Below the pieces are notes generated by a model that saw only the letters and a program-made list of their open reading frames with translations, did no database searches and was not told where the DNA came from. From Nitrospirota bacterium (lineage in GTDB: Bacteria; Nitrospirota; Thermodesulfovibrionia; Thermodesulfovibrionales; UBA9159), in the NCBI GenBank assembly GCA_021790195.1, contig JAJYIF010000005.1, positions 72,870 through 136,869 on the forward strand: 64,000 nt of DNA, given 5' to 3'. Shown piece by piece: positions 13,321 through 36,390 of this stretch. The position numbers and the translations under genes are program-made. Every line of letters begins with the position of its first letter. Position 1 is the stretch's first letter.

Positions 13321-13354
13321 TCCTTCATTGTATTAATCTTTATTTGTATGAAAA

Positions 13355-13505: not shown

Positions 13506-13516
13506 CATACTGTCTC

Positions 13517-13903
13517 TTATAATCCATTCACAACCCGCTCGATACCGTCTTTGATAAGATTCGCATTAAAATTAATAAGCAGCCCAAGCTTCTTTTCCGT
13601 CAGCCTGAGATAAGTCATTAATTGCTTTTTATGAACAGGCAAAACCTTTTCCACTGCTTTCAGTTCCACAATCACTGAGTCTTCCACGATCAAATCCGCA
13701 CGGAAACCCAGGTCGAGCTTGACATCTTCATAGCGAACAGGTATCCCCACTTCCTTCTCGCACTTCATGCCGGATCTTTTCAACTCGCACATAAGAACTT
13801 CAAGGTAGACCGATTCCAATAATCCCGGCCCGAGCGTTGTATGAATTTTATAACAACAATCCACTATTATCTTCGATATCTGGTTTTCGTTCCTATTATT
13901 CAT
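13517..13903 (-). CDS. GxxExxY protein (PD-(D/E)XK-like fold family)
   Basis: 128 aa. The sequence IVDCCYKIHTTLGPGLLESVYLEVLMCEL ... DLIVEDSVIVELKAV carries the eponymous GxxExxY motif (GLLESVY). Confidence 0.85.
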   Translation of the reverse strand: MNNRNENQISKIIVDCCYKIHTTLGPGLLESVYLEVLMCELKRSGMKCEKEVGIPVRYEDVKLDLGFRADLIVEDSVIVELKAVEKVLPVHKKQLMTYLRLTEKKLGLLINFNANLIKDGIERVVNGL

Positions 13904-13910
13904 TTTTGGT

Positions 13911-13964
13911 CTTTCTTAGCGACTTTGCGTGAAAAGAATCCTTTTTTGTCCTTTGCATGAGAAT
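13911..13964. repeat. upstream copy of the ttagcgNctttgcgtga repeat flanking the GxxExxY gene
   Basis: ctttcttagcgactttgcgtgaaaagaa (13911-13938) and cctttgcatgagaat (13950-13964) match tcttcttagcgcctttgcgcctttgcgtgagaa at 13431-13463, in the same orientation. Confidence 0.75.
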
Positions 13965-13968
13965 GCCT

Positions 13969-15318: not shown

Positions 15319-15390
15319 TATCTATATATTATTTTACCCGGTTTAGATCTGCAAAAAACACTGTCGTCTAACAGACAAAGGTTCCGTCAT

Positions 15391-16677: not shown

Positions 16678-16705
16678 TTGTCATAACGGGGATACTGCGT
16701 TATAC

Positions 16706-17635: not shown

Positions 17636-17680
17636 CTAACGATTCATCCAGTGAAAAAACGATTTCAGGTCTCTTACGAT

Positions 17681-18802: not shown

Positions 18803-18834
18803 TTATAACCGTGCAGCCAGATACTTTGACGCGT

Positions 18835-20028: not shown

Positions 20029-20057
20029 TCTTCACAGTCTCTAAGAAGATAATGTTC

Positions 20058-22037
20058 TCAATTAGAACGTTTTCTCTGAAAAACATGAAACCAAATAGCA
20101 AAGAAAAGCAGCCGCCAGGAATGAACTGCAGTCGTCTGGTTATCGACCAGTCTACTCCACCCTGCGCGCAATGCTCCGACATCGAGAAATTCTCCGAGGT
20201 CGTCAGTAAAATAGTCAGCCACCTCGCTCTTGATCGACTTGAGCCATCGCGATTCCGGAGTAGAGAACCCCAGCTTGTCAGTCCTCAGTCTGATCTTCTC
20301 AGGCAGTATCCCCTTTGTAGCCTCGCGCAGGATGTATTTGCTCCACCCGTCATGTATCTTGTATACAGAGGGGATCTGAAAAACATATTCGATGAGGTTG
20401 ATATCATCGGCAAAGGGCGTCCTTGCCTCTACCGAAAAGCGCATAGAGTTCCTGTCCTCGTATTTGAGCAAGTACTTAAAGTCGAAACTCCTGATTGCAT
20501 TATGCAAGTCCTGATTCAATGATGCCGGAACATTAGAGTGATAAGACTCAATACGATACTTAAACTCATTCCAAAAATTCTTCTTCATGTAGTGCAATTC
20601 CCTTCTCACTTTCATAAACATTGCTTCCTTGATCGCGGAAGGCATTTTGATGTTCACAAACATCTTGATTAGCGCTGACATTAGATATTTCTTGTCGACT
20701 GGGGAGTTGCCGATATTAGTAAAGTTATTAAGGATATCCCTTACTGCAAAACTCCTCATTTTTTCCAGGTATGCAGTTATGAAATACCCTCTGTAGCCTG
20801 CGAATAATTCGTCGCCTCCCTGGCCATCCAGAAGGACCTTGATCCCGGTTTCTCCCGCAAGTTTCATTACATAATACTGAGCGATTATACTTGAGGAGAG
20901 GCACGGAACATCCTGAGCATACATCATATCTTCAATATCCCTGAGAATTAACTCCGGGGTCGGCCGCGCCCGAAACCATGATGATTTTGTCTGCCCGGCC
21001 ACTATACCGGCCCAGTCTGTCTCATCTTCCGGACCGCCATCGTAGCTTGCCGTGAAGACCTTCTGTCTTTCCCCGATCTCAGGATGTCTGTCATTGGCGA
21101 GCAAGCTATTGATAATACAGGCTATAGTCGAGCTGTCAAGTCCTCCACTGAGGCAGGTTCCTACGGGCACGTCAGATCTGAGCCTCAGCGAAATCGAGTC
21201 ACTAACAAGTTGCCTTGTCTTCTCCACGATTTCCCTGAAATACTTCTCGTCAAAAACCGCCCGGTCGTTTGAATACTTCAGTTCATAGTACTTGCGTCTT
21301 GTAAGGCCCATCGACGAAAGATCCAGCCGGAAGAGACAACTTGGTTGAAGCTCCAGAATATCACTGAATATTCCTTCTTCTTCGTTCTCAATCCTTGAAA
21401 GGGCGAGATAATCAAAAACCGCCTTAGGATTTATTCCCCTTCCTGCGAAAGGCAGCTTGACCAGTGCCTTTATTTCGGACGCGAAGGCAAAATACTCGGC
21501 ACTCACATAGTAATAAAGCGGTTTGACACCAAATCTGTCCCTTGCACCGAACAGCATGTTCCTTCTCTTGTCGTAGATCACAAATGCCCACATGCCGTTA
21601 AGTTTGTGAAGAAACGCTTCGCCCCAACACTCATAGGCGCTCAAAAGGACCTCCGTATCCGAATTCGTCCGGAAGCTGTATCCGGCAACTCTGAGTTCCT
21701 CCCTAAGTTCAATGTAGTTGTATATCTCGCCGTTAAAAACGATCCAGAGGGTGTTGTCCCTGTTGCTCATGGGTTGGTGACCGAGCGGCGAGAGGTCGAG
21801 AATAGAAAGTCTCCTGTGTCCAAGAAACAGGTTCGCTCCAGCCCCAAAGGCTTCGATTCGCTGCCCTTCGATCCTACTATCTCTCCCGGTCAGAGGGGTC
21901 AGCTCACCGGACGAAGTGTTTATGGCCAGATAGCCTTCATCGTCAGGCCCTCTGTGGACCAGTGCGTCGCAGGCGATCCTGATTAAGTCGGAAGAGATGT
22001 TCTTGCGATGATTAAATATTCCGGCTATTCCGCACAT
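20058..22037 (-). CDS. asparagine synthase (glutamine-hydrolysing) family amidotransferase, glycan-locus paralog
   Basis: 659 aa. N-terminal nucleophile MCGIAGIF and the PP-loop SGGLDSS. Confidence 0.92.
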   Translation of the reverse strand: MCGIAGIFNHRKNISSDLIRIACDALVHRGPDDEGYLAINTSSGELTPLTGRDSRIEGQRIEAFGAGANLFLGHRRLSILDLSPLGHQPMSNRDNTLWIVFNGEIYNYIELREELRVAGYSFRTNSDTEVLLSAYECWGEAFLHKLNGMWAFVIYDKRRNMLFGARDRFGVKPLYYYVSAEYFAFASEIKALVKLPFAGRGINPKAVFDYLALSRIENEEEGIFSDILELQPSCLFRLDLSSMGLTRRKYYELKYSNDRAVFDEKYFREIVEKTRQLVSDSISLRLRSDVPVGTCLSGGLDSSTIACIINSLLANDRHPEIGERQKVFTASYDGGPEDETDWAGIVAGQTKSSWFRARPTPELILRDIEDMMYAQDVPCLSSSIIAQYYVMKLAGETGIKVLLDGQGGDELFAGYRGYFITAYLEKMRSFAVRDILNNFTNIGNSPVDKKYLMSALIKMFVNIKMPSAIKEAMFMKVRRELHYMKKNFWNEFKYRIESYHSNVPASLNQDLHNAIRSFDFKYLLKYEDRNSMRFSVEARTPFADDINLIEYVFQIPSVYKIHDGWSKYILREATKGILPEKIRLRTDKLGFSTPESRWLKSIKSEVADYFTDDLGEFLDVGALRAGWSRLVDNQTTAVHSWRLLFFAIWFHVFQRKRSN

Positions 22038-22169
22038 TAACGTTCAGTTCCTATAATGAATTAGTAAAGCACAACGAACATTTGTGCCCATTTGAACCTA
22101 TCCTTCGAGTAGATTTTCATCCGCGGTATTTAAGGGGAAAAAACAACCCTTCAGTAAGTTTATGAGAGC

Positions 22170-23255
22170 TCATCTTTTGCGATCGCGCCATTTCAGTGCA
22201 GCTTGATCGTGATATTTCCATTTTCCAAAAGTACCTCTATATCCATCCCATACACCACAGATTATAGCCCATGCCGAACAGAATCGTTGGTTCAATAGAT
22301 TCTTTAATACTTGCCCAGACCGATGCAGCAAATTGAACGAATAAAATAGTATTCTCAGTTGCAAAGAAAGCATCTCTCTGCCTCGTATTATGAGATTTCG
22401 AGTTTGGTAATAATAAGCTATGGGGCTATGTCTCCCGCCCGAACTGTGAGCGTGCTTGTGGTAAATGATGCTACGCTTCGATACGATAATCGTATACCCA
22501 ACTTCACGTGCGGTCCAACAGAATGAAAATTCATCGCCATATAGAAATAGTCTATCGTCAAAATAATTACCTGTTATGGCATAAACGCCCATGAGCGTAT
22601 CTTTTCGAATCAGCATACCCGCGCCGCTTACCCAGTGGAAGTTCCAGAAATGCTCGTCCACTCCCACGGGGGGCATAGGCCAGCGAACAATAGGATGAAA
22701 ATATTCTCGAAATAGCGGGAAATTTCCATAGCCTCCCAAACACCCTATCTCCCCACTCGCTTCGTCCTTAATGACGGAGCCGACAATACCGGCATCGGCT
22801 TCACGTGAAGCCGACACTAGCTGTATTAAACACTCCTTATCAACTTTGGCGTCGTTATTCAGAAGGAAACAAAAATCTGCAGGATGTTTTTTCCTAAGGA
22901 CATAATGAAATGCCACATTACATCCGCCTGTAAAACCCAGATTCTCTTCGTTTCTAATCAAAACCATCTTAGATTTTGAAGCCACATGTTCGAAATTTTC
23001 TTCATTTTGTTCTTTTCCACCCTGCAATGCCTCAGCTCGTGTATATTCGAGAAAGACATGTGCCTTACCCAGCGCTTCACCAGCCCAAGCTCTAATTTTC
23101 TCAGATGAACCATCCCACGAACCATTGTCCACAACAATAAGAAGAAAGTTTGGATAGGTAAGCTGTAGGGCAGCTTCCAGACATTCAATGGTATCACGCC
23201 AGCCGTTCCAGTTAAGAATAATAATGGCAACATTAGGAGGATTATTCATGGTCAT
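22170..23255 (-). CDS. glycosyltransferase family 2
   Basis: VAIIILNWNGWRDTIECLEAALQLTY, VDNGSWDGS and LLNNDA motifs. I start at the ATG at 23255 (MTMNNPP), which avoids overlapping the upstream gene; the track start is 23315. Confidence 0.85.
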   Translation of the reverse strand: MTMNNPPNVAIIILNWNGWRDTIECLEAALQLTYPNFLLIVVDNGSWDGSSEKIRAWAGEALGKAHVFLEYTRAEALQGGKEQNEENFEHVASKSKMVLIRNEENLGFTGGCNVAFHYVLRKKHPADFCFLLNNDAKVDKECLIQLVSASREADAGIVGSVIKDEASGEIGCLGGYGNFPLFREYFHPIVRWPMPPVGVDEHFWNFHWVSGAGMLIRKDTLMGVYAITGNYFDDRLFLYGDEFSFCWTAREVGYTIIVSKRSIIYHKHAHSSGGRHSPIAYYYQTRNLIIRGREMLSLQLRILFYSFNLLHRSGQVLKNLLNQRFCSAWAIICGVWDGYRGTFGKWKYHDQAALKWRDRKR

Positions 23256-23265
23256 ACCGATGAGA

Positions 23266-24483
23266 TCATTGATGTAATTCAAACTCTTCGTGCATATAAT
23301 CTTTAAATTTCCCACCTACCAAATCATCAAAAAAGTTGACCTTGTTGAATGTGTATTCATTGATGACCTCATGCAGTATCTCTTCAAGAACATCTGTTCT
23401 CTTGGGCCATGTGAAGTTCTTACATGTATCTAAAGCGTTTTGAACCATTCTTGTGCATTCTCCCGGATTTTCAATGGCATAGGCAATCTTGTTCGCCATA
23501 GTCTCCACCTCCCTGGGAGGCGAAACCAGACCGTTAACTCCATTAGCTACATAATCTTCTGTGCCATATCTCGTCGTAATGACTAAGCTACCACATGCCA
23601 TAGCTTCAATAGGAGGCAAAGGAAAACTTTCATACCATGATGTCAATAGGACAATATCTGCCCCCGAATACAATGCTGCCAGTTCTTCGCCGAATATCTT
23701 GCCGACATACTCGAACTCCACATCGTACCTGTTAGTAGGAGGACGCAATCCATACACTTTCCATTTTATATTTACGTTCTTTCTGATAAGTTTCTCTCTT
23801 GCAATTGACACTGCCTTAACCGCATCCCCGAATCCCTTCCATTCCCTAGTCTCATCAAAATAACTAACAACTAACCAATCCTTCTTATCATAGTATTTTT
23901 CTTTCGGCTCCTTATAGGATCTAAAGACATTTAGGTCTATCCCCGGATTTAAAAGATAAGGTTCATCATGAAAGTGCTTCCTTATTAGGTTCTTCAACCA
24001 TATAGAATTGGCCACTTTTATAAGAGGCAGCTTATAAGTGTTTCGCACAATCAGTCTTTGCAACTTGTCAGGGAAAGATATTTCTTCAAAATGCTGCATG
24101 TGATAAATGGGTACCGTTTTATCAGATAGATAATATGCTGCATAGGCGGTCAAGCAATAGGTCGCAATCGTTACATCAGAGTCCGCCCAGTTTCTTATGA
24201 GCCCTCTTGTCAAGCGATAAAGATAAAGATAAGGCTGATACTTCTTGAAAAGAGAATAAACGGGTGACACTCTAACAATTGGTTTAACGACCCTTCTCAA
24301 GATAGATGGCTTTGTTGTAATTTTGACTCTATCCTTCCATATTCCCGGTTCCCATCTCAGTCGCTGATCGGGCAGTACTGCATATACCTCGTGACCTCGT
24401 TTGACAAGCTCATCCATAAAACTGTATAAGACCAATGAGCCTCCTGTCCTTCCCCACTCGAATAACAAATAAGATATCTTCAT
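23266..24483 (-). CDS. glycosyltransferase family 4
   Basis: 405 aa. ESFPLPPIEAMACGSLVITTRYG is a GT-B C-terminal motif. Confidence 0.8.
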   Translation of the reverse strand: MKISYLLFEWGRTGGSLVLYSFMDELVKRGHEVYAVLPDQRLRWEPGIWKDRVKITTKPSILRRVVKPIVRVSPVYSLFKKYQPYLYLYRLTRGLIRNWADSDVTIATYCLTAYAAYYLSDKTVPIYHMQHFEEISFPDKLQRLIVRNTYKLPLIKVANSIWLKNLIRKHFHDEPYLLNPGIDLNVFRSYKEPKEKYYDKKDWLVVSYFDETREWKGFGDAVKAVSIAREKLIRKNVNIKWKVYGLRPPTNRYDVEFEYVGKIFGEELAALYSGADIVLLTSWYESFPLPPIEAMACGSLVITTRYGTEDYVANGVNGLVSPPREVETMANKIAYAIENPGECTRMVQNALDTCKNFTWPKRTDVLEEILHEVINEYTFNKVNFFDDLVGGKFKDYMHEEFELHQ

Positions 24484-24496
24484 TCTTTCTTTCTAT

Positions 24497-25588
24497 TCAA
24501 ACCTCATTAAATAACTCCAATGCTCCAGCAACAACCTGATCCATATTCAAATATCTATACTCCGCCAACCTTCCGACGAAATAGACATTGTTTAGTTTGT
24601 TCGCTTCTTCCTCGTATTTCCGATACATCTCCTGATACTCCGCTCTCGGAATCGGATAGTATGGGTCTCCTTCGGGTTTTGGATACTCGTAACATATGGT
24701 CGTCTTGTCGTGCTTCTGAAGATAAAAATGTTTGAACTCGGTGATCCTCGTAAAATCATGATCATTCGGATAATTTACAACTGCCGCGTCTTGATATCTT
24801 TCCACAGACAGTGTTTCAAACTTGAAGTCGAGACTTCTGTATGGAAGCTTCCCATGTTTATAGTTGAAGAAATAATCAATGGGGCCTGTGAATATGAGCT
24901 TTTCGTATTCTGTTTCACCAACCACTTCTTTATAGTCCGCGTTAAGGAGAATATGGATATTCCTGTTGTCCAGCATCCTCTCAAACATCTTTGTATATCC
25001 ATGCTTGGGCATACCCTGATATTGATCAGTAAAGTATCTCGTGTCTCGATTAAATCTCACCGGCAGTCTTCTTGTCACTTGCGGATCAAGCTCGTCAGGA
25101 TATACACCCCACTGCTTTTTCGTATAATTTTTAAAAAATAACTCATACAGTTCCTCGCCCACCTGTGAAACAACCACATCTTTCGAGTTCTTGATTTCAT
25201 CGACCTTGACCCTGCGACTTTCGAAATAATCCTCAAGCTCTTCAGGTGTAAACGTTCGATCAAACAGCTTCTCCATAGTATCAAGATTTATAGGAAGATA
25301 GACTTCTTTTCCTTTTACTTTTGCCAGCACCCTGTGAACGTAATTGTTCCATTCCGTGAACTGGGAAAGATAGTCCCATACCATCTTATTATTCGTATGA
25401 AAGATATGGGGGCCATACTTTTGGACAAGGATGCCGTCTTCATTATAGTAATCATAAGCATTGCCGCCTACGTGGTTCCTTTTTTCCACCAGCAATACTT
25501 CTTTCTCAAGCTGCACGGCAATCCGTTCGGCAAGTGTGCAGCCAGCAAATCCGGCACCAACGATAAGAAAGTCAACCTTCATTTTCAA
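24497..25588 (-). CDS. glf: UDP-galactopyranose mutase
   Basis: 363 aa. FAD motif DFLIVGAGFAGCTLAERIA, then HVGGNAYDY, and the C-terminal FVGRLAEYRYLNMDQ typical of Glf. Confidence 0.93.
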   Translation of the reverse strand: MKMKVDFLIVGAGFAGCTLAERIAVQLEKEVLLVEKRNHVGGNAYDYYNEDGILVQKYGPHIFHTNNKMVWDYLSQFTEWNNYVHRVLAKVKGKEVYLPINLDTMEKLFDRTFTPEELEDYFESRRVKVDEIKNSKDVVVSQVGEELYELFFKNYTKKQWGVYPDELDPQVTRRLPVRFNRDTRYFTDQYQGMPKHGYTKMFERMLDNRNIHILLNADYKEVVGETEYEKLIFTGPIDYFFNYKHGKLPYRSLDFKFETLSVERYQDAAVVNYPNDHDFTRITEFKHFYLQKHDKTTICYEYPKPEGDPYYPIPRAEYQEMYRKYEEEANKLNNVYFVGRLAEYRYLNMDQVVAGALELFNEV

Positions 25589-26375
25589 CGTGCTCGCTTA
25601 GCTCAAATACCGCAAACAGCGAGCAACTCACTCGCTCGCTATTGTAAAGATCCAAGAACCTGAACGGGTACAAGAGGAGCCCTTTTAAGAAACTGATGTA
25701 TCTTATATTGAGGAAGAAGCGATAATAAAGCGCACAGCCGATATTGCTTATAAGTCCGGTATTATACTCGCTGTAAATCATTGTTGCACCGATCTCATTA
25801 AAAAGATACTTCAACCCCTGCGAAGTAAACCCGTCGACGAGGTGGCCGACTTTCTCGTGAAAGTCTTGCCCAAACACTCGTTTATAATTTGGCGTAGGAA
25901 CAGACACAACAATAATCCCTTTCTCCCCAAGTACTGACTTCAATTGTTGCAAGATTGCGACCGGATTCTTAACATGTTCCAGAAAGTCAATCAGGAAAAT
26001 CGTATCGAAGCGGTTAGTTACGTCTGCAAATGTGTAAGTTGTAGCATCAGCGCAGACAAACCTCAAACTTTTGTCAATATTCATCTTACCGGCGATCTCG
26101 TTGGCATTATTAATAGCATCGGCATTCAGATCGAAGCCGACATAGGATATCTGTTCGATATCTAAAATCTTTGGGAGTTCAAACGCCAGTGTTCCCATTC
26201 CACTGCCAACTTCCATTATTCTGTGGGGTTTGTCTTTCCCAAGAAAGTTTCTCAGATATTTCAATACCGGGTTCAATCTGATATGGCTATGCAGATCCAA
26301 AGTGCCGAGAATAGCAGTGATACCGCTTTTAATCTTTCCCGTGTAAAGGCACTTCTGAAGATCACCGACAGGCAC
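25572..26375 (-). CDS. class I SAM-dependent methyltransferase
   Basis: 267 aa. Motif I is IMEVGSGMGTLAFEL, followed by FDTIFLIDFLEHV. GTG start abuts the wzx stop. Confidence 0.8.
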   Translation of the reverse strand: MPVGDLQKCLYTGKIKSGITAILGTLDLHSHIRLNPVLKYLRNFLGKDKPHRIMEVGSGMGTLAFELPKILDIEQISYVGFDLNADAINNANEIAGKMNIDKSLRFVCADATTYTFADVTNRFDTIFLIDFLEHVKNPVAILQQLKSVLGEKGIIVVSVPTPNYKRVFGQDFHEKVGHLVDGFTSQGLKYLFNEIGATMIYSEYNTGLISNIGCALYYRFFLNIRYISFLKGLLLYPFRFLDLYNSERVSCSLFAVFELSEHVENEG

Positions 26376-27656
26376 TTATTCTGCGCTCCCCTTTATGGCA
26401 CACTTCAATGACGGCATAATGGCGTATTTGCGATAGTAAACAAACGATGACACTAGCACAATTATCTCAGTCAGCAGAATATTTATACTGATACCGACAT
26501 GTCCCATCCCGAGTAAATAAACAAATATTAGTGCACCTATCAGACTCGCAACACTCGAAGAGATAATAATCCTTGACCACGCCCTGGTAAAGCCGAACGC
26601 CAAGAGGAAAAAGTTTGAGTAAATTGTGGCCATGCCAATGATAAAAGGCAAGAAAGACAATATCCTAATCACAGGTATGCTTTCTTTAAACTGCTCTCCG
26701 AGGATAAGATTGCTAAGCGGCGCAGCAAAGATACACAAAGAAAAAGATAGCACAAACATGGGCAACCCGATGATCCGTACGAGCCTTTTCATAAAGGCCA
26801 TGGCGACATCCCTTGATTCATTTGCCAGTTTGCTGATATGTGGATAAACTGTTTGTGACAGCGGACCCATCAGTCCTTGCACAGCCTTGACAATCTTTTC
26901 CCCCGCACTAAAATAACCTACGACCGTAGTGCCGGCAAAGATGCCAAGTATAAAAGTATTGCTTATGGTATAAAGACTGATAGCTATCGTTGAGATGAAT
27001 ATGTGCCAGCCTTCCCTAAGCTGATATTTTATTTCGCTTGATTCCGGCCACCTGAACTTCACTTCAAGTTTAAACAAAACTATTAATAGTGCGATTATGC
27101 CAACGAAAAGAGATCCGATAGCAGTAATCAAAGGCACATAAGGATAATCATTTTGAGACCTTATAAAAATAAAGATACAGATAGTAAAAAATGCTCTCGA
27201 AAACATATTAAATATTGCTATTTGCTTCATTTTCTCCAAGCCCTGGAAAAGCCATGAGGGGAATAGGACACCGCCCAAAACGACGCCAAAGGTAAAAATA
27301 TAAACCAGCCATTCGGCGCGGAACCTTGGGATACTGAAAACAACGATACACATAACCAGGAAACTTAGAATCATAAGAGCCGCCTTGATCAAGACCACCG
27401 AACTGAAGATCTCATCGACTCTCTCCTTGTTGTCTCTGTGAATTGAAACACTCCTCGTTGCCGAAAGGCCAAAACCATAATCAGTAACGAGTCCGAAATA
27501 GCCGATGAACGCCTGAGCAAAGGCAAGCAGCCCAAATTTTTCAGGTCCAAGCACTCTCACAAGATACGGAACCGTTATAAGTGGGAAAACATAATTCGCA
27601 ACCTGAACACTGGAAAGAGACAGGAAATTTGAGATTAGTCTTTTTCTATTACTCAC
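26376..27656 (-). CDS. wzx: oligosaccharide flippase (Wzx/RfbX, MOP superfamily)
   Basis: 426 aa with about 12 membrane segments. N-terminus LISNFLSLSSVQVANYVFPLITVPYLVRVLGPEKFG is typical of the polysaccharide biosynthesis protein family. Confidence 0.85.
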   Translation of the reverse strand: MSNRKRLISNFLSLSSVQVANYVFPLITVPYLVRVLGPEKFGLLAFAQAFIGYFGLVTDYGFGLSATRSVSIHRDNKERVDEIFSSVVLIKAALMILSFLVMCIVVFSIPRFRAEWLVYIFTFGVVLGGVLFPSWLFQGLEKMKQIAIFNMFSRAFFTICIFIFIRSQNDYPYVPLITAIGSLFVGIIALLIVLFKLEVKFRWPESSEIKYQLREGWHIFISTIAISLYTISNTFILGIFAGTTVVGYFSAGEKIVKAVQGLMGPLSQTVYPHISKLANESRDVAMAFMKRLVRIIGLPMFVLSFSLCIFAAPLSNLILGEQFKESIPVIRILSFLPFIIGMATIYSNFFLLAFGFTRAWSRIIISSSVASLIGALIFVYLLGMGHVGISINILLTEIIVLVSSFVYYRKYAIMPSLKCAIKGSAE

Positions 27657-27724
27657 TATTTACTCAGAAACTTTCGTGATTAGCGACAGACTAATTTCCA
27701 GGCTGCGGCGCTCGCGCTTCGTCT

Positions 27725-28498
27725 TTAATCATACTTCCTGATCCCGGCCAGCTCAAGCAGTACATGCCAGACAAACTGCGGGCCTTCGATCAGGTCGCGG
27801 CGCCATAGTTTCCTCGGCTCCTTCATAAACCGCCACACCCATTCCAGCCCGCTCCTTCCGACCCACCCGGGAACGCGTTTCACCTTCCCGCTCAAGAAAA
27901 GAAAAGCGGCTCCTACCCCTATAGCGACAGGGACTTTCAGTCTGTCCTTATGCTCGAATATCCATCTGTCCTGCTTCGGCAGCCCGAGGCCCACCCAGAG
28001 GACGTCCGGCCGCGCCTCGTTTATCATCCTGACAACGCGCTCGTCCTCCTCCGGTGTCAGCGGCCGGAAAGGGGGCGAGAAGAACCCCGCGATCCTATGA
28101 CCCGGATATTTTTCTCCGATGTTTTCCTTCAGCGCCGTCAGGGTGTCGTCCGTATCGCCGTAGAAGAAACTGCTGTAACCCTTTTTATCTGCAAGCTCAA
28201 AGAAGGCCTTCATGATATCGGCCCCAGGCGTCCGCTCCGCTCCACGAAACCCCTTGAGCTTCGCTACGGCAACCGGCGCTATGCCGTCCGGCGCCCAGAG
28301 GTCCGCTGAATTGAGCATGGCCCTGAAATCGGCGTCCTTGTGGGCTTCCCATATCCCGTGAAACCCGGTAACAACAACTCTCCTGCACGTTCTCTCGCGG
28401 CTCGATATCCAATGGTCTATCTCTCCGACAATCTGCGGCAGCTTAAGGAGCTGCACCCTGGACCCTAATATCTTCACACAGTTATCGCCGCCGGACAT
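27725..28498 (-). CDS. WecB/TagA/CpsF family glycosyltransferase (GT26)
   Basis: About 257 aa. GFHGIWEA ... ADLWAPDGIAPVAVAK ... FFYGDTDDT ... LWVGLGLPKQDRW is the GT26 pattern. ATG at 28498. Confidence 0.88.
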   Translation of the reverse strand: MSGGDNCVKILGSRVQLLKLPQIVGEIDHWISSRERTCRRVVVTGFHGIWEAHKDADFRAMLNSADLWAPDGIAPVAVAKLKGFRGAERTPGADIMKAFFELADKKGYSSFFYGDTDDTLTALKENIGEKYPGHRIAGFFSPPFRPLTPEEDERVVRMINEARPDVLWVGLGLPKQDRWIFEHKDRLKVPVAIGVGAAFLFLSGKVKRVPGWVGRSGLEWVWRFMKEPRKLWRRDLIEGPQFVWHVLLELAGIRKYD

Positions 28499-28570
28499 CA
28501 ATCAAATCTCTTGCGAGCGGGTATAAGGTCTCCCTTCGCGCTATTGCGCGAGCAAATGCCGCTCCTGTCA

Positions 28571-28750
28571 TTACTGGATAAATGAAAGAACTGCGACGCC
28601 GGCGACAAGACCGCAAACAAGGGCAACAAAAATATAGATGATCCTGTTCCGGCCCGCGCGCAGGGTCAAGATCCCCTTGATCCTTCTGAAGAGGCTCTTT
28701 TTCCTGCGGACTCTCTTTCTCCCGGAATGGTGTGAGACTGTATCACTCAT
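28571..28750 (-). CDS. possible 59-aa tail-anchored basic membrane protein (below the ORF-track size cutoff)
   Basis: My translation: MSDTVSHHSGRKRVRRKKSLFRRIKGILTLRAGRNRIIYIFVALVCGLVAGVAVLSFIQ. It fills the gmd to GT26 gap on the operon strand, but I see no clear Shine-Dalgarno. Confidence 0.3.
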   Translation of the reverse strand: MSDTVSHHSGRKRVRRKKSLFRRIKGILTLRAGRNRIIYIFVALVCGLVAGVAVLSFIQ

Positions 28751-28761
28751 AAGAACAGCTG

Positions 28762-29931
28762 CTATTCATGGAACCTCATCGTCTTGAAACCTTCCTTGCT
28801 GCACATATACTCCCTCTGCGCCTCAATGATGTCTTCCCTCACCATCTCCCTGACAAGGTCCTTAAAGCCGGCCTTGGGTCTCCAGCCGAGCCTTGCCCTC
28901 GCCTTGGAGGAATCTCCCATAAGACTGTCCACTTCCGTAGGACGGAAATAGCGCGGATCGACCCGGACAAGCGTGTCTCCGACACGCAGACCCGAGGTTG
29001 AGGTCAAGGTTGAGGAAGACGACTTCATAACACCGCGCTCTCTGATGCCTTTCCCTTTCCCTTTCCATTCCAGTTCTATCCCCACCTCCCTGAATGCCGC
29101 ATCGCAGAAATCCCTGACGGAATACTGCTTGCCCGTGGCGATTACATAGTCGTCCGGCTTATCCTGCTGGAGCATGAGCCACATCGCCTCGACGTAGTCC
29201 CGCGCATGGCCCCAGTCTCTCTTGGCATCCAGGTTCCCCAGATACAGGTTCTTCTGAAGGCCGAGCACTATCCTAGCCACCGCCCTCGTGATCTTCCTCG
29301 TAACGAAGGTCTCGCCTCTCAGCGGCGACTCGTGATTGAAGAGTATACCGTTGCTCGCGTGGATGCCGTAGGCCTCGCGGTAATTGACAACGATCCAGAA
29401 GGCATAAAGCTTGGCCGCGCCGTAAGGACTCCTCGGATAGAAAGGTGTGGTCTCCTTCTGAGGTGTCTCCCTGACCTTCCCGTAAAGCTCGGAGGTGGAG
29501 GCCTGATAGAACCTCACCCTGCCGGTCATATTAAGGATGCGCAATGCCTCGAGAAGCCTCAGCGTTCCGAGTGCATCCGCGTTTGCCGTATACTCGGGGG
29601 TCTCGAAGGAGACGAGAACGTGCGACTGTGCCGCAAGGTTATAGATTTCGTCCGGTTGGGTCTCCTCTATGATTCGTATGATGTTCGTCGCGTCCGTCAG
29701 ATCGCCGTAGTGCAGAAAGAACCTGGGATGGCCTTCATGCGGGTCAGTGTACAGGTGATCCACCCTCTGGGTGTTAAAGAGTGAAGAGCGCCGTTTGATG
29801 CCGTGGACTATATATCCCTTATTGAGCAGAAACTCGGAAAGATATGCCCCGTCCTGGCCGGTGACGCCGGTAATCAAGGCGGTTTTTGGCGCTGGTTCCT
29901 GAGTTCTACGCGGTATATCTTTTGACGGCAT
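28762..29931 (-). CDS. gmd: GDP-mannose 4,6-dehydratase
   Basis: 389 aa. [23 protein letters not shown], then [10 protein letters not shown], then [18 protein letters not shown] Shine-Dalgarno. Confidence 0.95.
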
Positions 29932-29948
29932 TAATGCCTCCTCGGGAT

Positions 29949-30881
29949 TTATTGAAGGTCTTTCTTAAGAAAGTCTTCATATGTCAGCCTGAGTCCTTCC
30001 TCCAGCCCGGTCTTCGGTCTCCAGCCCATGGCCGCAAGTCGCGAACCGTCTAGCAGCTTCCGGGCTGTCCCGTCCGGCTTCGAGGGATCAAAGGCGATCT
30101 CTCCTTTGAACCCCACAATGTCTCTTATCATCCAGGCGAGCTCCTTTATCGTCACTTCATGGCCCGACCCTACGTTAATAGTATCGTTGCCGGAATAATT
30201 CCTCACCAGAAAGACGCAGGCGTCGGCCAGATCGTCCACGTAAAGGAACTCCCTGAGCGGAGAGCCGGTGCCCCAGATAGTTACAGGAGCCTCAGCCTGT
30301 TCTTTGGCTTCATGAAAGCGCCATATAAGCGCGGGAATCACATGGGCGTTCAAGGGATCGTACCTGTCATTAAGACCGTAGAGGTTCGAGGGCATGCACG
30401 AAATAAAGTTTGTCCCGTACTGGCGGTTGTAGGACTCGCAGAGTTTTATCCCTGCGATCTTTGCCACCGCGTAAGGTTCGTTGGTCGGTTCAAGTTTGCC
30501 GCCCAGGAGATACTCTTCCTTAATGGGCTGGGGCGAGTTCTTGGGATAGATGCAGGAAGAGCCGAGAAACAGCAGCTTCCTCACTCCGGTCACATGGGCG
30601 CCGTGAATGAGATTGCATTCGATGACCAGGTTCCGGTATATAAAATCCGCGGGATAGGCGCTGTTGGCATAGATGCCGCCGACCTTTGCTGCTGCAAGGA
30701 AAAGATACTCGGGCCTCTCCTTTTCGAGAAATCTGATTACAGACTCCCGGTCCATGAGGTCCAGCTCCGACGACGACGGTCCCACTATATTGACAAAACT
30801 TTCTGACCTTAGCCTCCGCTCAATGGCTGACCCCACCATGCCGCTCCGCCCGGCGATATATATCTTAGAGTCTATATCCAT
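29949..30881 (-). CDS. fcl: GDP-L-fucose synthase (GDP-4-keto-6-deoxymannose 3,5-epimerase/4-reductase)
   Basis: [14 protein letters not shown], then LGSSCIYPK, then YAVAKIAG. The track start at 30890 is a TTG; the ATG at 30881 ([11 protein letters not shown]) fits the family better. Confidence 0.92.
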
Positions 30882-30892
30882 CCAGTTCAAAA

Positions 30893-31088
30893 GAGGTCAA
30901 ATAGTTCCAAGGTCAAGTAATTCAAAAAATCCCACGTCAAACACCTTGTTTAACCTTCTTTCCCTTCTTCACCTTATTAACCTTATTTACCATTCTTGAC
31001 CTACTTTTTTGACCTTATTGACCTTCTTATTTTTGCTTCTGTTAACCTTCTTAGCCTGTTTGAACTTCTTAACCTTATTAACCTTACC
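30893..31088. repeat. GGTCAA/TTGACC (GGTTAA/TTAACC) palindromic array spanning the fcl-manC gap and the manC 3' end
   Basis: ggtcaa at 30895 and 30911. These are followed by about 10 inverted units (ttaacc, ttgacc, tgaac) from 30950 to 31088 at 9-15 nt spacing. Confidence 0.8.
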
Positions 31089-32546
31089 CTTTCGCTGCTT
31101 TTCGTGTCTCCCGTAGACATCGTCCATTCTCACTATGTCGTCCTCTCCCACATACTCGCCGTTCTGGACCTCTATTATCTCAAGGGGGATCTTGCCGGGG
31201 TTTTCGAGCCTGTGAGGCGTGGACTTCGGGACATAGGCGGATTCATTCTCGTGTATAAAGACTTCCCGGTCCCCGATCATCACCTTTGCGGTCCCCTTCA
31301 CGACTACCCAGTGCTCGGACCTGTGATAATGCACCTGGAAGCTGAGCTTCTCGCAAGGGTTTACGACAATCCTCTTGATCTTGTACCTCGCCCCCTCTTC
31401 GAGCACCGTATAGCTCCCCCAAGGACGGTAAGTAGTCAGGTGCTCGGAAACCTCTTTCCTGCCCTCTTTCCTGAGCCTGCCCACTACCTCCCTCACCTTC
31501 TGCGCCTCTCCCCGCTTCGCCACAAGGACGGCGTCGTCAGTCTCAACAATCAGGCAGTCTTCGAGTCCTATAGTAGTTATCAATCTCTTGTCCGAGATTA
31601 TCATGGTGTCCCTTGTGTCCACAGTAATGACGTCCCCGCACCTTGCGTTCGAGTTGCCGTCCTTTTCGAGCACATCGAAGAGAGAATCCCAGGACCCTAT
31701 ATCGTTCCAGTAGAGATCCATCGGGAGCGTAACGACCCTGCCTGACTTCTCCATAACCGCATAATCTATAGATATGTCGGGCATGTCTTCAAAGACCGCG
31801 GTCATCTCTTCGAAGGAGAGGTCGAGCATACGGTTAATCCTCGGCTCATGCTGCCCGAATTCGTCAAGTATAGTTCCTAGCGAAAACATAAACATCCCTG
31901 AATTCCAGAGATACATTCCCTCCTTAAGATAGCGTCCGGCCGTAGCGGCATCTGGTTTTTCGGTGAAGGCCTCGACGCTATAGAAGCCCCCTGCTTCCTG
32001 TTTCCCGCTAGCCTTTATATATCCGTAACCGGTCTCCGGCCCCGAAGGCCTGATCCCGAAGGTGACGATATGACCGTCTTTTGCGATCTCCTCTGCACGG
32101 AGGAGATACTCTCTGAACCTGTCCGCAGGCCTGATTACATGGTCCGAGGGCGACACAAAGACCACCTCGTCCCTCCCGCAGCCCAACCTCTCGATACAAT
32201 ACTTGGCCCCTAGGGCTATCGCGGGCGCCGTGTTTCTGCCGCAAGGCTCGAGTATCAGATGAAAAGGCAGGGCATCCGATGAGTTAGTGTTGAGGGTCCT
32301 GCGCTTAGAAGAACCATGAGCCGAACCGGCAAAGACCGGAGCGAGATCGGTCTTGACATGGAACTTGTAGTCGTCGTTAGTCATAACTACAATGTTTTCG
32401 GGGGCGACCACCCCGTCCAGTCTTTCGGCAGTCTGCCGAAGAAGAGACCTCTCACCGTTAAGCTTCAAGAACTGTTTTGGAAAGTTCCTCCTCGAGAGGG
32501 GCCAGAGCCTCGTGCCCGAACCGCCGGCAAGAATAAGCGCCTTCAT
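30987..32546 (-). CDS. manC: mannose-1-phosphate guanylyltransferase / mannose-6-phosphate isomerase (type II PMI-GMP) with a polybasic C-terminal tail
   Basis: MKALILAGGSGTRLWPLSR, then EPCGRNTAPAIALGA, then a cupin region HYHRSEHWVVVKGTA, then GEDDIVRMDDVYGR. The last ~35 aa (KGKVNKVKKFKQAKKVN...) are encoded by the repeat array. Confidence 0.92.
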   Translation of the reverse strand: MKALILAGGSGTRLWPLSRRNFPKQFLKLNGERSLLRQTAERLDGVVAPENIVVMTNDDYKFHVKTDLAPVFAGSAHGSSKRRTLNTNSSDALPFHLILEPCGRNTAPAIALGAKYCIERLGCGRDEVVFVSPSDHVIRPADRFREYLLRAEEIAKDGHIVTFGIRPSGPETGYGYIKASGKQEAGGFYSVEAFTEKPDAATAGRYLKEGMYLWNSGMFMFSLGTILDEFGQHEPRINRMLDLSFEEMTAVFEDMPDISIDYAVMEKSGRVVTLPMDLYWNDIGSWDSLFDVLEKDGNSNARCGDVITVDTRDTMIISDKRLITTIGLEDCLIVETDDAVLVAKRGEAQKVREVVGRLRKEGRKEVSEHLTTYRPWGSYTVLEEGARYKIKRIVVNPCEKLSFQVHYHRSEHWVVVKGTAKVMIGDREVFIHENESAYVPKSTPHRLENPGKIPLEIIEVQNGEYVGEDDIVRMDDVYGRHEKQRKGKVNKVKKFKQAKKVNRSKNKKVNKVKKVGQEW

Positions 32547-33958
32547 GCAGCGCCTCCTTCGATAGTCTTCCTTAGTTCGTCTTCCACAAAGGACTTATAG
32601 TCCTCGAGGCTCTCTTCGTCGAGGGCCTCTACCCTCACGACAATAACAGGCTGCGTATTACTCGACCTTACGAGGGCCCAGCCCTTTTCAAACCTGACCC
32701 TGACACCGTCCGTCACGTTCAGGTCCTCTATTTTGCGGGGACCGCCCACCGCCTTATATCCGCGAAAGTTCTCTACGACCTCTCCGACTATCTCCTTCTT
32801 CCTGTCCTCGGAGCACTCGATCCTTATTTCCGGCGTCGAACACATCTGGGGAACGTCCGAGAGGAGCTCCACGAGGTCCTTTCCTGTCTCCTTCATTATC
32901 CCGATCAATCTGAGTCCCGCATAAACAGCGTCGTCGTAACCGAAATATCTGTCGCCCACAAAGATGTGGCCGCTGAACTCTCCCGCCAAGATAGCGCCTT
33001 CGTCCCTCATCTTCTGCTTTATCAGAGAGTGACCGGTCTTCCACATTATAGGTATGCCGCCGCACCGTCCGATTGCGTCGAACATGGTCTGCGAACACTT
33101 CACGTCGCCTATGATCTTTGCGCCGGGCCTTTGCCTTAATACCTCGCGGGAAAGCACTATCATAAGACGGTCGCCCCACACAATATCTCCGCTCCCGTTC
33201 ACAAGGCCTATCCTGTCGGCGTCTCCATCATACCCGATACCCACGTCCGCTTTCCACCTTTTTGTTTCTGAGATCAGGTCCCTCATGTTTTCTATAACAG
33301 TCGGGTCCGGGTGGTGGTTCGGAAAATTGCCGTCGGGCTCGCAATAAAGACGGACCACTTCGCAATTGATGTCCTCAAACAGTTCGGGCGCAATGAGACC
33401 CGCGGTGCCGTTTCCTGCATCCACAACCACCGTAAGCCTCCTGAAGCGGCCGCCTCCCAAATAGGAGAATTCTTTCATCATGTAGTCCCTGTAAGCCTTA
33501 AGGATTTCATAGCCGTCGACTCTTCCTTTCCCGACGTGTCCGGCGCCCTCCCGGCTCAGAATGATTTCCTTAAGCTTCTGTATGTCGCTTCCATGGATCG
33601 TCTCCTTTCCGAGACTTATCTTGAAGCCGTTATATTCGGGCGGATTGTGGCTCCCTGTGACCATGACCCCTCCGTCGAGGTCGAGATGAAAGAGAGAAAA
33701 ATATTGAACTGGAGTCGTACAGACCCCGAGGTCGAAGACATCGAGCCCCGTAGACACAATGCCTTCAATGAGACCGGAGGCAAGCTTCGCAGACCCGTTT
33801 CTGACGTCCCTTCCGACGCTCAGGCATATGGCGTCCGGCCTCACTCTCTTAACAAAAATACCGAAGGCCCTGCCGATGGAGAAAGCGACTCCCCTGTCCA
33901 GGTCCTCTCCCACTATGCCCCGTATATCGTATTCCCTGAAGATCCTATGGTTTATCAT
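32543..33958 (-). CDS. manB: phosphomannomutase/phosphoglucomutase
   Basis: 471 aa. FREYDIRGIVGEDL, the active-site loop VMVTGSHNPPEYNGFK, and GYDGDADR. Confidence 0.92.
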   Translation of the reverse strand: MINHRIFREYDIRGIVGEDLDRGVAFSIGRAFGIFVKRVRPDAICLSVGRDVRNGSAKLASGLIEGIVSTGLDVFDLGVCTTPVQYFSLFHLDLDGGVMVTGSHNPPEYNGFKISLGKETIHGSDIQKLKEIILSREGAGHVGKGRVDGYEILKAYRDYMMKEFSYLGGGRFRRLTVVVDAGNGTAGLIAPELFEDINCEVVRLYCEPDGNFPNHHPDPTVIENMRDLISETKRWKADVGIGYDGDADRIGLVNGSGDIVWGDRLMIVLSREVLRQRPGAKIIGDVKCSQTMFDAIGRCGGIPIMWKTGHSLIKQKMRDEGAILAGEFSGHIFVGDRYFGYDDAVYAGLRLIGIMKETGKDLVELLSDVPQMCSTPEIRIECSEDRKKEIVGEVVENFRGYKAVGGPRKIEDLNVTDGVRVRFEKGWALVRSSNTQPVIVVRVEALDEESLEDYKSFVEDELRKTIEGGAA

Positions 33959-34283
33959 ATCCGTGGAACCCCGCTCCCGTTTCCTGCCTGAGGACCTCGA
34001 TCTCGCACCTGAGCCTGTCGAATTCTTCGAGTTTTATCTGAAGGAAGTTGTAGCTCTGTACGATCTTCGCGCTGACGCCTTTGGCTGTCAGGACATACAT
34101 ATACGCAATCTTATTCTTTGAATTCTTGAACCTGTTGGCCTTTATGTAGCCCTCTTCGAGAAGGGCATTGACGACATAGTTCACCCTGCCGAGACTCAGA
34201 CCCATCCTTTTCGAAAGATCCCGCTGTGAAAGGGTCCCGTCCCGCGCTAATTCACGGAGGACATTAAATCGGTTCTCGTCCAT
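33945..34283 (-). CDS. MarR-family, EPS-associated winged-helix transcriptional regulator
   Basis: 112 aa. LRELARDGTLSQRDLSKRMGLSLGRVNYVVNALLEEGYIK ... YVLTAKG matches the small MarR-EPS family pattern as I recall it. Confidence 0.78.
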   Translation of the reverse strand: MDENRFNVLRELARDGTLSQRDLSKRMGLSLGRVNYVVNALLEEGYIKANRFKNSKNKIAYMYVLTAKGVSAKIVQSYNFLQIKLEEFDRLRCEIEVLRQETGAGFHGYDKP

Positions 34284-34289
34284 CTTAAT

Positions 34290-34600
34290 AAAGGTGAAAG
34301 GTGAAAAAGGTCGAACAGCTTAACCATATTATCATTCATAAAACATGGGCAGGTGCGGCGCAAAACTTTTTTGTTTCGACACCTTAATGTAAATCTCCAA
34401 TAGGCGCTTTGATACGCGTTGCCACAGTCGATTCGTTAATCTCGGATTCTCGATCATGATATCTCGTCGATTTCAAAAAAGTTTTGAGACGTGTCTGCCC
34501 GTCATGCGCAGCAAAGTTCATGAATAATCCAGGTTAAGCAGGTCAACAAGGTTAAAAGCGAAGAAGTCAAAAATCGATAAGTTCAAACAGGTCAAAAAAC
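34290..34600. repeat. composite palindromic (MITE-like) element inside the operon leader
   Basis: Contents, left to right: GGTGAA/GGTCGA units (34290-34325); a left arm with caaaacttttttg (34361-34373); a right arm with its perfect complement caaaaaagttttg (34474-34486) plus catgggcag versus ctgcccgtcatg; then a GGTYAA array (34531-34600). Positions 34436-34535 are repeated at 42711-42807. Confidence 0.7.
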
Positions 34601-34646
34601 AATCTGAAATCAAGAGATGGAACCTGGAACTTTTTTAACTTTTAGA

Positions 34647-34658
34647 CAGGCTACCGCC
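34647..34658 (-). promoter_or_regulatory. ops-like (RfaH/NusG-paralog recruitment) element GGCGGTAGCCTG
   Basis: The plus strand reads caggctaccgcc, so the operon (non-template) strand reads GGCGGTAGCCTG. This matches the ops core GGCGGTAG plus the downstream TG. Confidence 0.55.
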
Positions 34659-34716
34659 GCGTCTTGCCGGAAGGCTGCAAAAATAAAAAGAAATCCGTGC
34701 GTTCAGGCACTGAACT

Positions 34717-34746
34717 AATATAGAACTAACCGGGGTAAAAGGTCAA
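34717..34746 (-). promoter_or_regulatory. candidate sigma70-type promoter for the glycan operon leader
   Basis: The minus strand reads TTGACC (34746-34741), an 18-nt spacer, then TATATT (34722-34717). It lies about 55 nt upstream of the ops-like motif. Confidence 0.4.
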
Positions 34747-34796
34747 GAAGAAATAGTAATAATGATATCCGGGGAGGAAAAAGGAGATGTGCTCTG

Positions 34797-35279
34797 CTAT
34801 ACCTTCTTTATCGATCTGATCTCTATCTCCAGCTTGCAGTGCAGAGCTTCCAGGAGGATCATCGACCGCTTCTTTCCGGGGACATTCCTGTCGAAAACAC
34901 CGTAGAAATCTTTAAAGGGGCCCTCCTTTATCAGGACCCTGTCCCCCTTTTCAAGGTCTTCAGGGGTCTGAACGACTATGTCGCCATCCATCCTTTCCCT
35001 TATGGCGCCTATTATCTCAGGGTGGACAGCCAGAGGGTTTTCCCTGCCGACGATGTATTTGACCCCGCGCGTATAACTGATCATGTGGCTGTGTTTCTCT
35101 TTGTCGAAGAGGGCAAAGATATAACAGGGGAAAAGCTGCTCCACGACATCGCAATACTTATTGCGCAGGCGCTTCAGAATCCTTATCTTCGGATTGAGCG
35201 TCTCGATCCCTGCGTTGTTGAGCATGCGGACCGTGCTGTCTTCGCACTTCGGCTTTGTGTATATCGCGTACCAGTTCAT
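34797..35279 (-). CDS. specialised NusG paralog (RfaH/UpxY/LoaP-like; NGN + KOW)
   Basis: MNWYAIYTKPKCEDSTVRMLNNAGIE is an NGN-type N-terminus and GDRVLIKEGPFKDFYGVFD is a KOW motif. The track start at 35297 is a TTG inside a repeat; I prefer the ATG at 35279. Confidence 0.85.
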   Translation of the reverse strand: MNWYAIYTKPKCEDSTVRMLNNAGIETLNPKIRILKRLRNKYCDVVEQLFPCYIFALFDKEKHSHMISYTRGVKYIVGRENPLAVHPEIIGAIRERMDGDIVVQTPEDLEKGDRVLIKEGPFKDFYGVFDRNVPGKKRSMILLEALHCKLEIEIRSIKKV

Positions 35280-35287
35280 ATCTATGT

Positions 35288-35364
35288 GCAAGGTCAAAAA
35301 GCTCCAAGGTCAAAAAGCTCAGATTACTCTTTGACCTCCCTATCCTATTTGACCTTCTTAACCT

Positions 35365-35366
<2 letters not shown>
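35288..35366. repeat. GGTCAA/TTGACC palindromic array (type copy) between galE and the NusG paralog
   Basis: Tandem caaggtcaaaaagctc x2 (35289-35320), followed by the inverted units tttgacc (35329), tttgacc (35348) and ttaacc (35359). Confidence 0.85.

Positions 35367-36390
<1,024 letters not shown>

Follow-up and report, generated by a model that had tools for sequence, protein, structure and literature searches.

We found an exact copy of the ops element in the untranslated leader of a long glycan operon from Nitrospirota, downstream of an adjacent gene that codes for an RfaH-like NusG paralog. The analyzed DNA (hereafter the window) is a stretch of 64,000 nucleotides (nt) from a Nitrospirota bacterium (Thermodesulfovibrionales; UBA9159; assembly GCA_021790195.1, contig JAJYIF010000005.1, positions 72,870–136,869). 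Based on what was observed directly, namely the sequence of the element, its strand-specific conservation, the fixed architecture of the leader, and the similarity of the protein to RfaH, we estimate with a probability of roughly three in four that this locus encodes an ops/RfaH-type processive-antitermination module in cis. RfaH and ops are the classic example of an elongation factor that is recruited in a sequence-specific manner, and, as a comparative finding, the extension of this type of control well outside the bacteria in which it was worked out appears solid. A module of this kind had been proposed in an earlier reading of the same DNA (hereafter the original prediction).

The ops-Type Element in the Window

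On the operon (minus) strand, positions 34658–34647 read GGCGGTAGCCTG, which exactly matches the ops element GGCGGTAGnnTG on what the promoter implies to be the non-template strand, 59 nt past the end of the conserved -10 box. The pause-inducing T11-G12 of ops is also present in the window as TG. The sequence is as given in the original prediction. This was the only match to GGCGGTAGNNTG in the window, and it was the only strong match to the profile: a position-weight scan of both strands (128 kb) assigned 25.1 bits to this site and 11.0 bits to the runner-up. The original prediction gave a chance expectation of 0.12 per 128 kb for ten specified bases. Shuffled sequences gave 0.09, with at least one match in 9 of 100 shuffles; the real support comes from relatives. 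The bare 8-mer GGCGGTAG was found in two copies in the window versus 1.18 expected, and thus the motif is only mildly unusual when judged from the window alone, which is weak statistical support. The second copy (48054–48061, minus strand) lies antisense within a gene and is not among the top profile matches; it was rejected as a chance occurrence.

Conservation of the Element in Orthologous Loci

Species-representative genomes supplied 76 loci for comparison, all of which were oriented so that the paralog is on the plus strand. Within 700 nt past the paralog stop, the exact 9-mer GGCGGTAGC was detected on the sense strand in 29 loci and on the antisense strand in none, compared with a chance expectation of 0.2 in those regions (Poisson P ~1e-51), and eight further loci have a version with one mismatch. 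A profile scan revealed a site above 16 bits in approximately 40 of the 76 loci, the 99.99th percentile of the background being 7.4 bits. The 8-mer GGCGGTAG has 41 matches on the plus strand and 3 on the minus strand, one of which (in L017, 24.9 bits) is located between the paralog and a divergently oriented marR gene. Outside the leaders it occurs at a random rate (~13 observed vs. 12.8 expected in 839 kb). The original prediction had proposed conservation of the 12-mer in orthologous leaders as a check and had named an 8-mer that is common regardless of context as a sign to the contrary: the 12-mer is conserved in a strand-specific manner, and the 8-mer shows no excess elsewhere.

In L038 (4755–4831), a match to GGCGGTAG located 1.3 kb downstream of the paralog is the 5' end of a tRNA-Asp gene, an example of the chance origin of the bare 8-mer.

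Comparison of 39 sites showed that positions 2–5, 7, and 8 are invariant, whereas G1 and T6 are each conserved in 92%; position 11 is T in 77% and otherwise mostly a pyrimidine, and G12 is found in 85%. It has been reported for Escherichia coli that G4, G5, A7, and G8 are essential for RfaH recruitment, that C3 and T6 are (partly) important for it, and that G12 is needed for the pause (Zuber et al. 2018; PMC5995543). All of these recruitment-required bases are invariant or nearly so in the orthologous leaders. The comparison indicates that an identical ops core is under selection in Nitrospirota, where it occupies a fixed place in a modular leader, and this conservation is the decisive evidence that the motif is more than a chance match.

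An alternative explanation is that a conventional regulator binds the motif as double-stranded DNA, for example the product of the adjoining gene for a MarR family EPS-associated regulator (MarR_EPS), or that the match arose by chance and has no function at all, considering that 9 of 100 shuffles of the window also contain a 12-mer match. This explanation is effectively refuted by the comparative data (29 sense vs. 0 antisense sites, 0.2 expected). Moreover, the motif is not palindromic, it is also present in leaders that lack marR (L041, L045, L047, and others), and a separate palindrome tracks marR. We regard such a site, or a functionless match, as very improbable.

The RfaH-Like NusG Paralog

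The gene upstream of the motif was examined using NCBIfam models. The best model was RfaH (TIGR01955, 98.8 bits), followed by UpxY (NF033644, 69.3 vs. a cut-off of 100), LoaP (NF033641, 46.4 vs. 125), and housekeeping NusG (TIGR00922, 35.6 vs. 135.7). The gene precedes its leader instead of following it as upxY does, and its neighbors are galE and marR rather than those of a secE-nusG-rplK context. The same ranking, with RfaH above UpxY, LoaP, and NusG, was observed for 22 of 22 family members tested, none of which reaches the RfaH equivalog cut-off. The closest solved structure by sequence is E. coli RfaH (E = 3e-15, residues 2–155, a full-length alignment), with an identity of about 30%. In addition, the top structural matches of an AlphaFold2 model were RfaH proteins in ops-bound complexes, on which the NGN domain superposes at a root-mean-square deviation of 3.5 Å with 31–34% identity. 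These data support the assignment of the upstream gene as an RfaH-like NusG paralog and are consistent with the original prediction, which had placed a NusG paralog here in a genome that did not look enterobacterial; the relatives of the paralog come from metagenome-assembled genomes of Nitrospirota/Thermodesulfovibrionales.

A nusG-rplK-like context was found in only one of the loci, the distant L076 (28% identity, Brevinematales). An open reading frame (ORF) that begins 14 nt after the "paralog" of this locus, with its start encoded by AGGAGAGAGCCATGGCTCCCAAAGCAAAAAAGATCAAGGCAATAGTAAAACTGCAG, resembles ribosomal protein L11, and this member is probably a housekeeping nusG outside the RfaH-like family.

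Among the determinants named for RfaH are K10 and R73, which contact DNA, and E48, I93, F130, and R138, which are involved in autoinhibition (PMC7593976). Across 74 paralogs, the equivalents of the DNA-contacting K10, T72, and R73 are invariant or nearly so, and the same is true for those of the autoinhibition residues (E47, I90, F129, and R138). The counterparts of the ops-contacting K10 and R73, namely K9 and R71, are present in 35 of 35 paralogs from motif-containing loci and in 36 of 39 from loci without the motif. Of the four side chains that contact ops, the paralog lacks the other two, H20 and R23. That K10 and R73 are kept and H20 and R23 are not makes it possible to ask which residues specify ops.

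Architecture of the Leader

The leader of the window was compared with those of three relatives whose paralogs are 93%, 86%, and 79% identical to that of the window. The conserved footprint begins with the -35 box, ends about 5 nt beyond the motif, and has a fixed order (-35 box, -10 box, palindrome, T-rich spacer, motif); farther downstream, no alignment was obtained. The promoter suggested by the original prediction (TTGACC-N18-TATATT) was recovered upstream of the motif, conserved and at a fixed distance from it. A promoter of the type CTTGAC(C)-N17/18-TATATT is present at a constant offset from the motif in 27 leaders, with the CTTGAC(C)-type -35 box at the same offset in most of them. Transcription would start at approximately position 34710, as deduced solely from promoter spacing.

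Directly after the promoter, the same 27 leaders contain a palindrome (GTTCA-N5-TGAAC) with invariant arms and a variable center, which starts 57–64 nt before G1 of the motif. It is found in 21 of 22 leaders with a downstream marR_EPS gene but in none of 11 without this gene (Fisher P = 6e-8). Because it spans the predicted start site and tracks marR_EPS, this palindrome is a candidate operator, probably that of MarR_EPS. We found no description of it in the literature.

A second structural feature is a hairpin just before the motif. Its stem varies in sequence (e.g., CCTGTC/GACAGG, TCATG/CATGA, GTGTC/GACAC, ATGGC/GCCAT, and CATGCC/GGACATG) and ends 1–4 nt before G1 in 31 of 38 leaders, and exactly 3 nt before it in 22 of the 38. 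An initial RNAalifold analysis of a MAFFT alignment of 34 leaders recovered only a GGC/GCC mini-stem inside the motif; the upstream hairpin was missed because its 5' arms are out of register in the alignment. Per-sequence folding, which replaced this analysis, showed that the hairpin region folds better than flanking controls. In the sub-clade of the window itself, the hairpin has decayed to a 3-bp stem with a 7-nt spacer. A possible stem ending 1 nt before G1 was also seen in an E. coli rfb JUMPStart leader, although this is a single example and not significant against shuffles.

The original prediction had also counted a palindromic structure of about 200 bp downstream of the motif as part of the module. 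An inverted repeat does exist (arms at 34347–34373 and 34474–34500, 81% complementary and 100 nt apart), but it is lineage specific even in comparison with the 93%-identical relative. Nothing after the motif aligns with the three relatives, and thus both the inverted repeat and the TTGACCT-like repeats that accompany it are considered lineage-specific filler and were rejected as parts of the module; the inverted repeat resembles a lineage-specific insertion. The fold z-score of this variable remainder is -1.9. The leader is 513 nt long in the window versus 196–383 nt in the three relatives (130–317 nt shorter). A scan of positions 33800–35600 against Rfam (E up to 10) revealed no family, the only match being a spurious snoRNA on the other strand.

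With regard to the repeats themselves, TTGACCT and its complement AGGTCAA have 39 matches with at most one mismatch versus 14.9 expected, and they cluster in intergenic gaps (30884–31024, 35291–35355, and 50164–50213, as well as 34299–34748). The arrays are often inverted, with AGGTCAA copies followed by TTGACCT copies, and the array between galE and the paralog scored as terminator-like. They may represent genome-specific intergenic repeats or bidirectional hairpins. Six other loci (L004, L006, L016, L028, L031, and L047) have species-own direct repeats of 6–9 nt in the variable part of the leader just past the motif, such as GTTCAA/GTTCTAA, GAGTTATTC, GGCGCAT, TTAGCCC, and GGTAMAG, where the window has TTGACCT. 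Repetitiveness is common here, but the repeated sequence is not.

Proposed Mechanism and Alternative Explanations

We infer the following series of events; where transcription starts, whether the polymerase pauses, whether the protein binds and antiterminates, and what the operator and the hairpin do are all predictions. RNA polymerase would initiate at the sigma-70-type promoter (table 1) and, about 50 nt on, would transcribe GGCGGTAGCCTG and pause. As in E. coli, G1G2...T11G12 would fit the consensus pause, and a loop in the non-template strand (with the pairs G2:C9 and C3:G8) would present G5 and T6. The RfaH-like protein made from the adjacent gene would load via the non-template strand, stay on the polymerase, and suppress pausing and Rho-dependent termination, so that transcription would continue across the fast-evolving, untranslated leader (about 360 nt) and the 26-kb Wzx/Wzy operon. 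The nascent-RNA hairpin about 3 nt before G1, which most relatives have and which is degenerate in the window, probably restricts backtracking or helps in some other way to establish the paused complex. MarR_EPS, encoded by the first gene of the operon, probably binds the start-site palindrome. The operon would then be gated twice: at initiation by MarR_EPS and at elongation by ops and the paralog. Such an operon, long and low in G+C, belongs to the classical class of RfaH targets.

Several observations weigh against an ops/RfaH-type module. First, about 36 of the 76 orthologous loci contain no site within 3 kb. Second, the paralog scores below the RfaH equivalog cut-offs (98.8 vs. 144.5 bits for TIGR01955 and 88.8 vs. 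124 for NF006534). Third, the equivalents of H20, R23, Q24, and R16 are L/M/R, N/G, A/I, and S/A, respectively, across the family; the window paralog has M19, N22, and A23 at the first three positions, where a register shift in the alignment of helix alpha-1 is possible. Fourth, in two AlphaFold2 runs (with 22 and 106 sequences) the NGN domain was modeled confidently, whereas the C-terminal domain was a low-confidence mixture (predicted local distance difference test score 27–71) of short strands (114–116 and 126–128) and a helix (135–145/150), which neither supports nor excludes a fold switch. Finally, the 3' extension CYGYC is complementary to GGCGG, and the potential RNA or single-stranded DNA hairpin would be incompatible with the loop formed by E. 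coli ops.

The last point raises an RNA-level alternative. LoaP recognizes a hairpin in the leader RNA, and the element might likewise act as a transcript hairpin (GGCGG-UAGC-CYGYC, perhaps together with the hairpin just 5' of it) that is read by the paralog or another factor. The conserved positions 10–14 (C, Y, G, Y, C) can pair with G5–G1, and they vary only between C and U, which keeps G-C or G-U pairs; the hairpin that immediately precedes the motif retains its structure but not its sequence; and the best hits of the paralog, by structure as well as by sequence, include a "NusG-RNA complex" (8F5G). On the other hand, G1 is changed in L054, L057, and L073 without compensation at position 14, and position 10 is A or G in L016, L031, and L066, which breaks the pair with G5. 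The loops of the upstream hairpins also vary in sequence, which argues against a specific read-out of RNA. Considering in addition that RfaH reads a DNA element with the very same 8-mer and that the protein resembles RfaH more than LoaP (98.8 vs. 46.4 bits), recognition at the RNA level seems unlikely.

It might also be proposed that the element is a pure consensus pause, which serves, for example, leader folding, Rho access, or ribosome loading, while the paralog loads in cis cotranscriptionally and independently of sequence. The ops element is indeed an exemplar of the consensus pause, and its central C3–G8 part is dispensable for pausing but essential for recruitment (PMC5995543). Other features that would fit this explanation are the absence of any motif from about half of the orthologous loci, the lack of conservation of the residues of the T6 pocket, and the proposal in a 2026 preprint (PMC13015549) that RfaH homologs located in cis tend to be ops-independent. 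However, a pure pause would keep the flanks of the element and vary its center, whereas the bases found to be invariant are those of the central C3–G8. Besides, K10, R73, and the autoinhibition residues, which make recruitment dependent on ops, are invariant. We therefore consider a pause without sequence-specific recruitment to be improbable.

Loci without the Motif and Wider Distribution

In many of the loci that lack the motif (L012, L033, L034, L037, L043, L044, L046, L069, L074, and others), the next gene begins only 48–140 nt past the paralog. The paralog is therefore embedded in its operon, and an adjacent ops is not strictly needed by the family, some members of which may have an embedded arrangement that is possibly independent of ops. 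The key residues discussed above fail to separate paralogs with the motif from those without it. Enrichment analysis of 8-mers in 39 motif-minus loci gave no convincing alternative shared motif. The original prediction had called the module self-contained: motif, paralog, and promoter do occur together in the window, but about half of the orthologous loci are without the motif within 3 kb.

In four loci with distant paralogs (L061, L062, L063, and L065), a shared promoter-like block (CTTGACAA...TTACTCTAGGTTGTATA...GAAACTTATAGTTGTG) is present approximately 30–110 nt past the paralog stop in place of the motif. It may be a different leader element used by that sub-clade.

To assess the wider distribution, metagenomes were scanned with the extended motif AAYGGCGGTAGCCYGYC, which yielded 120 matches. 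About two-thirds of them fall within long ORFs, as expected by chance in a very large database, and only adjacency statistics were used. An adjacent NusG-family gene on the same strand was detected at 14 of the 120 matches versus about 0.09 expected. The gene lies 79–316 nt upstream of the motif in 11 of these cases, and the motif just precedes the gene in the other 3. The encoded proteins are 22–67% identical to the window protein and 22–35% identical to E. coli RfaH. A soil-metagenome clade (L203, L115, L152, and L165) is the most divergent one, with about 25% identity to the window protein, and in it the motif is just upstream of the paralog gene. For example, L203, one of three randomly chosen further members, has a 22.4-bit site at position 2422, 79 nt upstream of the gene, and a glycan gene of the Bac_transf family follows.

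The same element, GGCGGTAGCC(Y)G, is thus found in cis in the Nitrospirota family, in clades that are 38–41% identical to it, and in the soil clade. Each of these clades has members with and without the motif, and their T6-pocket residues differ from those of E. coli. A tentative idea, which we hold with less than even confidence, is that canonical ops recognition might not have originated late and only in proteobacterial RfaH. If so, these families of NusG paralogs would offer a natural series for reconstructing the evolution of sequence-specific recruitment and autoinhibition, and ops itself (a consensus pause plus a non-template hairpin) would be the older, portable half of the system.

Comparison with Known Systems

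The locus shares with the E. coli RfaH/ops system (JUMPStart; waa, rfb, kps, hly, and tra operons) the identical core GGCGGTAG and TG at positions 11–12, the location of the site on the non-template strand within an untranslated leader that is close to the promoter and precedes a long glycan operon of low G+C, and a protein that aligns over its full length and keeps K10, R73, E48, I93, F130, and R138. Differences are also evident. The organism belongs to Nitrospirota, and the protein, with about 30% identity and a score under the equivalog cut-off, does not keep H20, R23, Q24, and R16. The family consensus of the element has C at position 10 and an additional YC (GGCGGTAGCCYGYC). The leader also comes with a MarR_EPS gene and a palindrome at the start site. 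Furthermore, RfaH of E. coli is encoded monocistronically and works in trans on several unlinked operons, whereas the gene here is directly upstream of its target. It does not follow the paradigm of action in trans: it is probably cotranscribed with galE, and a single site is present in the 64-kb window.

A cis-encoded factor combined with ops has a precedent in PrfaH of IncX plasmids (PMC11880322), an RfaH-like gene that adjoins its target operon, is cotranscribed with it, and has an ops-like site near its own promoter. Unlike the paralog described here, PrfaH is carried on plasmids of Enterobacteriaceae, it acts on a type IV secretion (virB) operon, and its ops-like site is upstream of prfaH, whereas the motif follows the gene in the window. 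The PrfaH structure (9ik0) matches the paralog model more weakly than RfaH does (E = 1e-2). UpxY proteins are also NusG paralogs encoded in cis at polysaccharide loci, the capsule loci of Bacteroides, where they prevent termination in the 5' leader (PMC7819879). However, upxY is the first gene downstream of its leader, and no ops element has been described there. Another relative with a similar location is LoaP of Firmicutes polyketide clusters, a NusG paralog that adjoins its target and is dedicated to one or two long operons. LoaP promotes read-through of intrinsic terminators.

It has been reported that about 95% of recognized RfaH proteins are proteobacterial and that the recruitment mode is known for E. 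coli RfaH only (PMC7593976). A literature search for RfaH together with Nitrospirota, and for ops or JUMPStart outside Proteobacteria, found no prior description of such a system. Nitrospirota was not found in a 7-kb portion of the supplementary text of Wang et al. (2020), a portion that says nothing on its absence from their data. In the preprint mentioned above (PMC13015549), cis location was linked to ops-independence and to monomorphic or mixed C-terminal domains. In contrast to that proposal, the paralog family described here combines cis location with a canonical ops. It therefore bears on whether cis-encoded homologs are ops-independent and on how the cis and trans states evolved. In practical terms, the arrangement would provide a simple annotation rule for glycan operons of uncultured bacteria.

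Gene Neighborhood

The features of the locus are listed in table 1.

Table 1. Positions of the ops-type element, its leader, and the surrounding genes in the window
Feature	Position	Strand	Evidence and remarks
galE (UDP-glucose 4-epimerase)	35365..36342	-	TIGR01179, 462.8 bits
RfaH-like NusG paralog, 160 aa, ATG at 35279 (MNWYAIYTKPK...)	34797..35279	-	Pfam NusG NGN, 51.5 bits
-35 box TTGACC	34741..34746	-	Consensus scan; invariant in three close relatives
-10 box TATATT	34717..34722	-	Consensus scan and conservation; TTGACC-N18-TATATT spans 34746..34717
Palindrome GTTCAGTGCCTGAAC	34701..34715	-	Spans predicted start site; candidate MarR_EPS operator
Weak hairpin GCC-TTCC-GGC	34666..34675	-	Predicted fold; degenerate copy of the pre-motif hairpin of relatives
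ops-type element GGCGGTAGCCTG plus conserved extension TC	34645..34658	-	Family consensus GGCGGTAGCCYGYC; 25.1 bits
Variable leader remainder (TTGACCT-like repeats, long inverted repeat)	34284..34640	-	No alignment with the 93%, 86%, and 79% relatives
MarR family EPS-associated regulator, first operon gene	33945..34283	-	TIGR04176, 116.7 bits vs. cut-off of 88
Wzx/Wzy-type glycan operon, ~21 further genes	8315..33958	-	Pfam/NCBIfam

The order paralog-motif-marR is kept in more than 20 loci. Between galE and the paralog there are 85 nt in the window and 42 nt in L197; in L200, one gene runs into the other. The gap contains no conserved promoter, and galE and the paralog are probably cotranscribed.

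Downstream of marR, the genes code for PMM, ManC, Fcl, Gmd, a WecG-type glycosyltransferase, Wzx, a methyltransferase, Glf, several glycosyltransferases, an AsnB-like protein, Wzy, an epimerase, a WecA-like transferase, and Ugd. On the basis of this content, we assigned the region as a Wzx/Wzy glycan cluster of about 26 kb and about 22 genes. It ends at approximately position 8315, where the next co-directional genes are housekeeping genes (yicC, gmk, and coaBC). The long co-directional glycan operon of the original prediction (~27 kb, about 24 genes) is thereby upheld at a slightly smaller size. The G+C content is 0.42–0.49 at positions 14000–28000, the part with the glycosyltransferase, Wzx, and Wzy genes, versus about 0.53 elsewhere; such low values are typical of horizontally exchanged glycan cassettes.

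A small gene of the PD-(D/E)XK type (PDDEXK_3) is located at 13517–13903, between the Wzy gene and an epimerase gene, with unusually large gaps on its flanks. It may be an inserted element.

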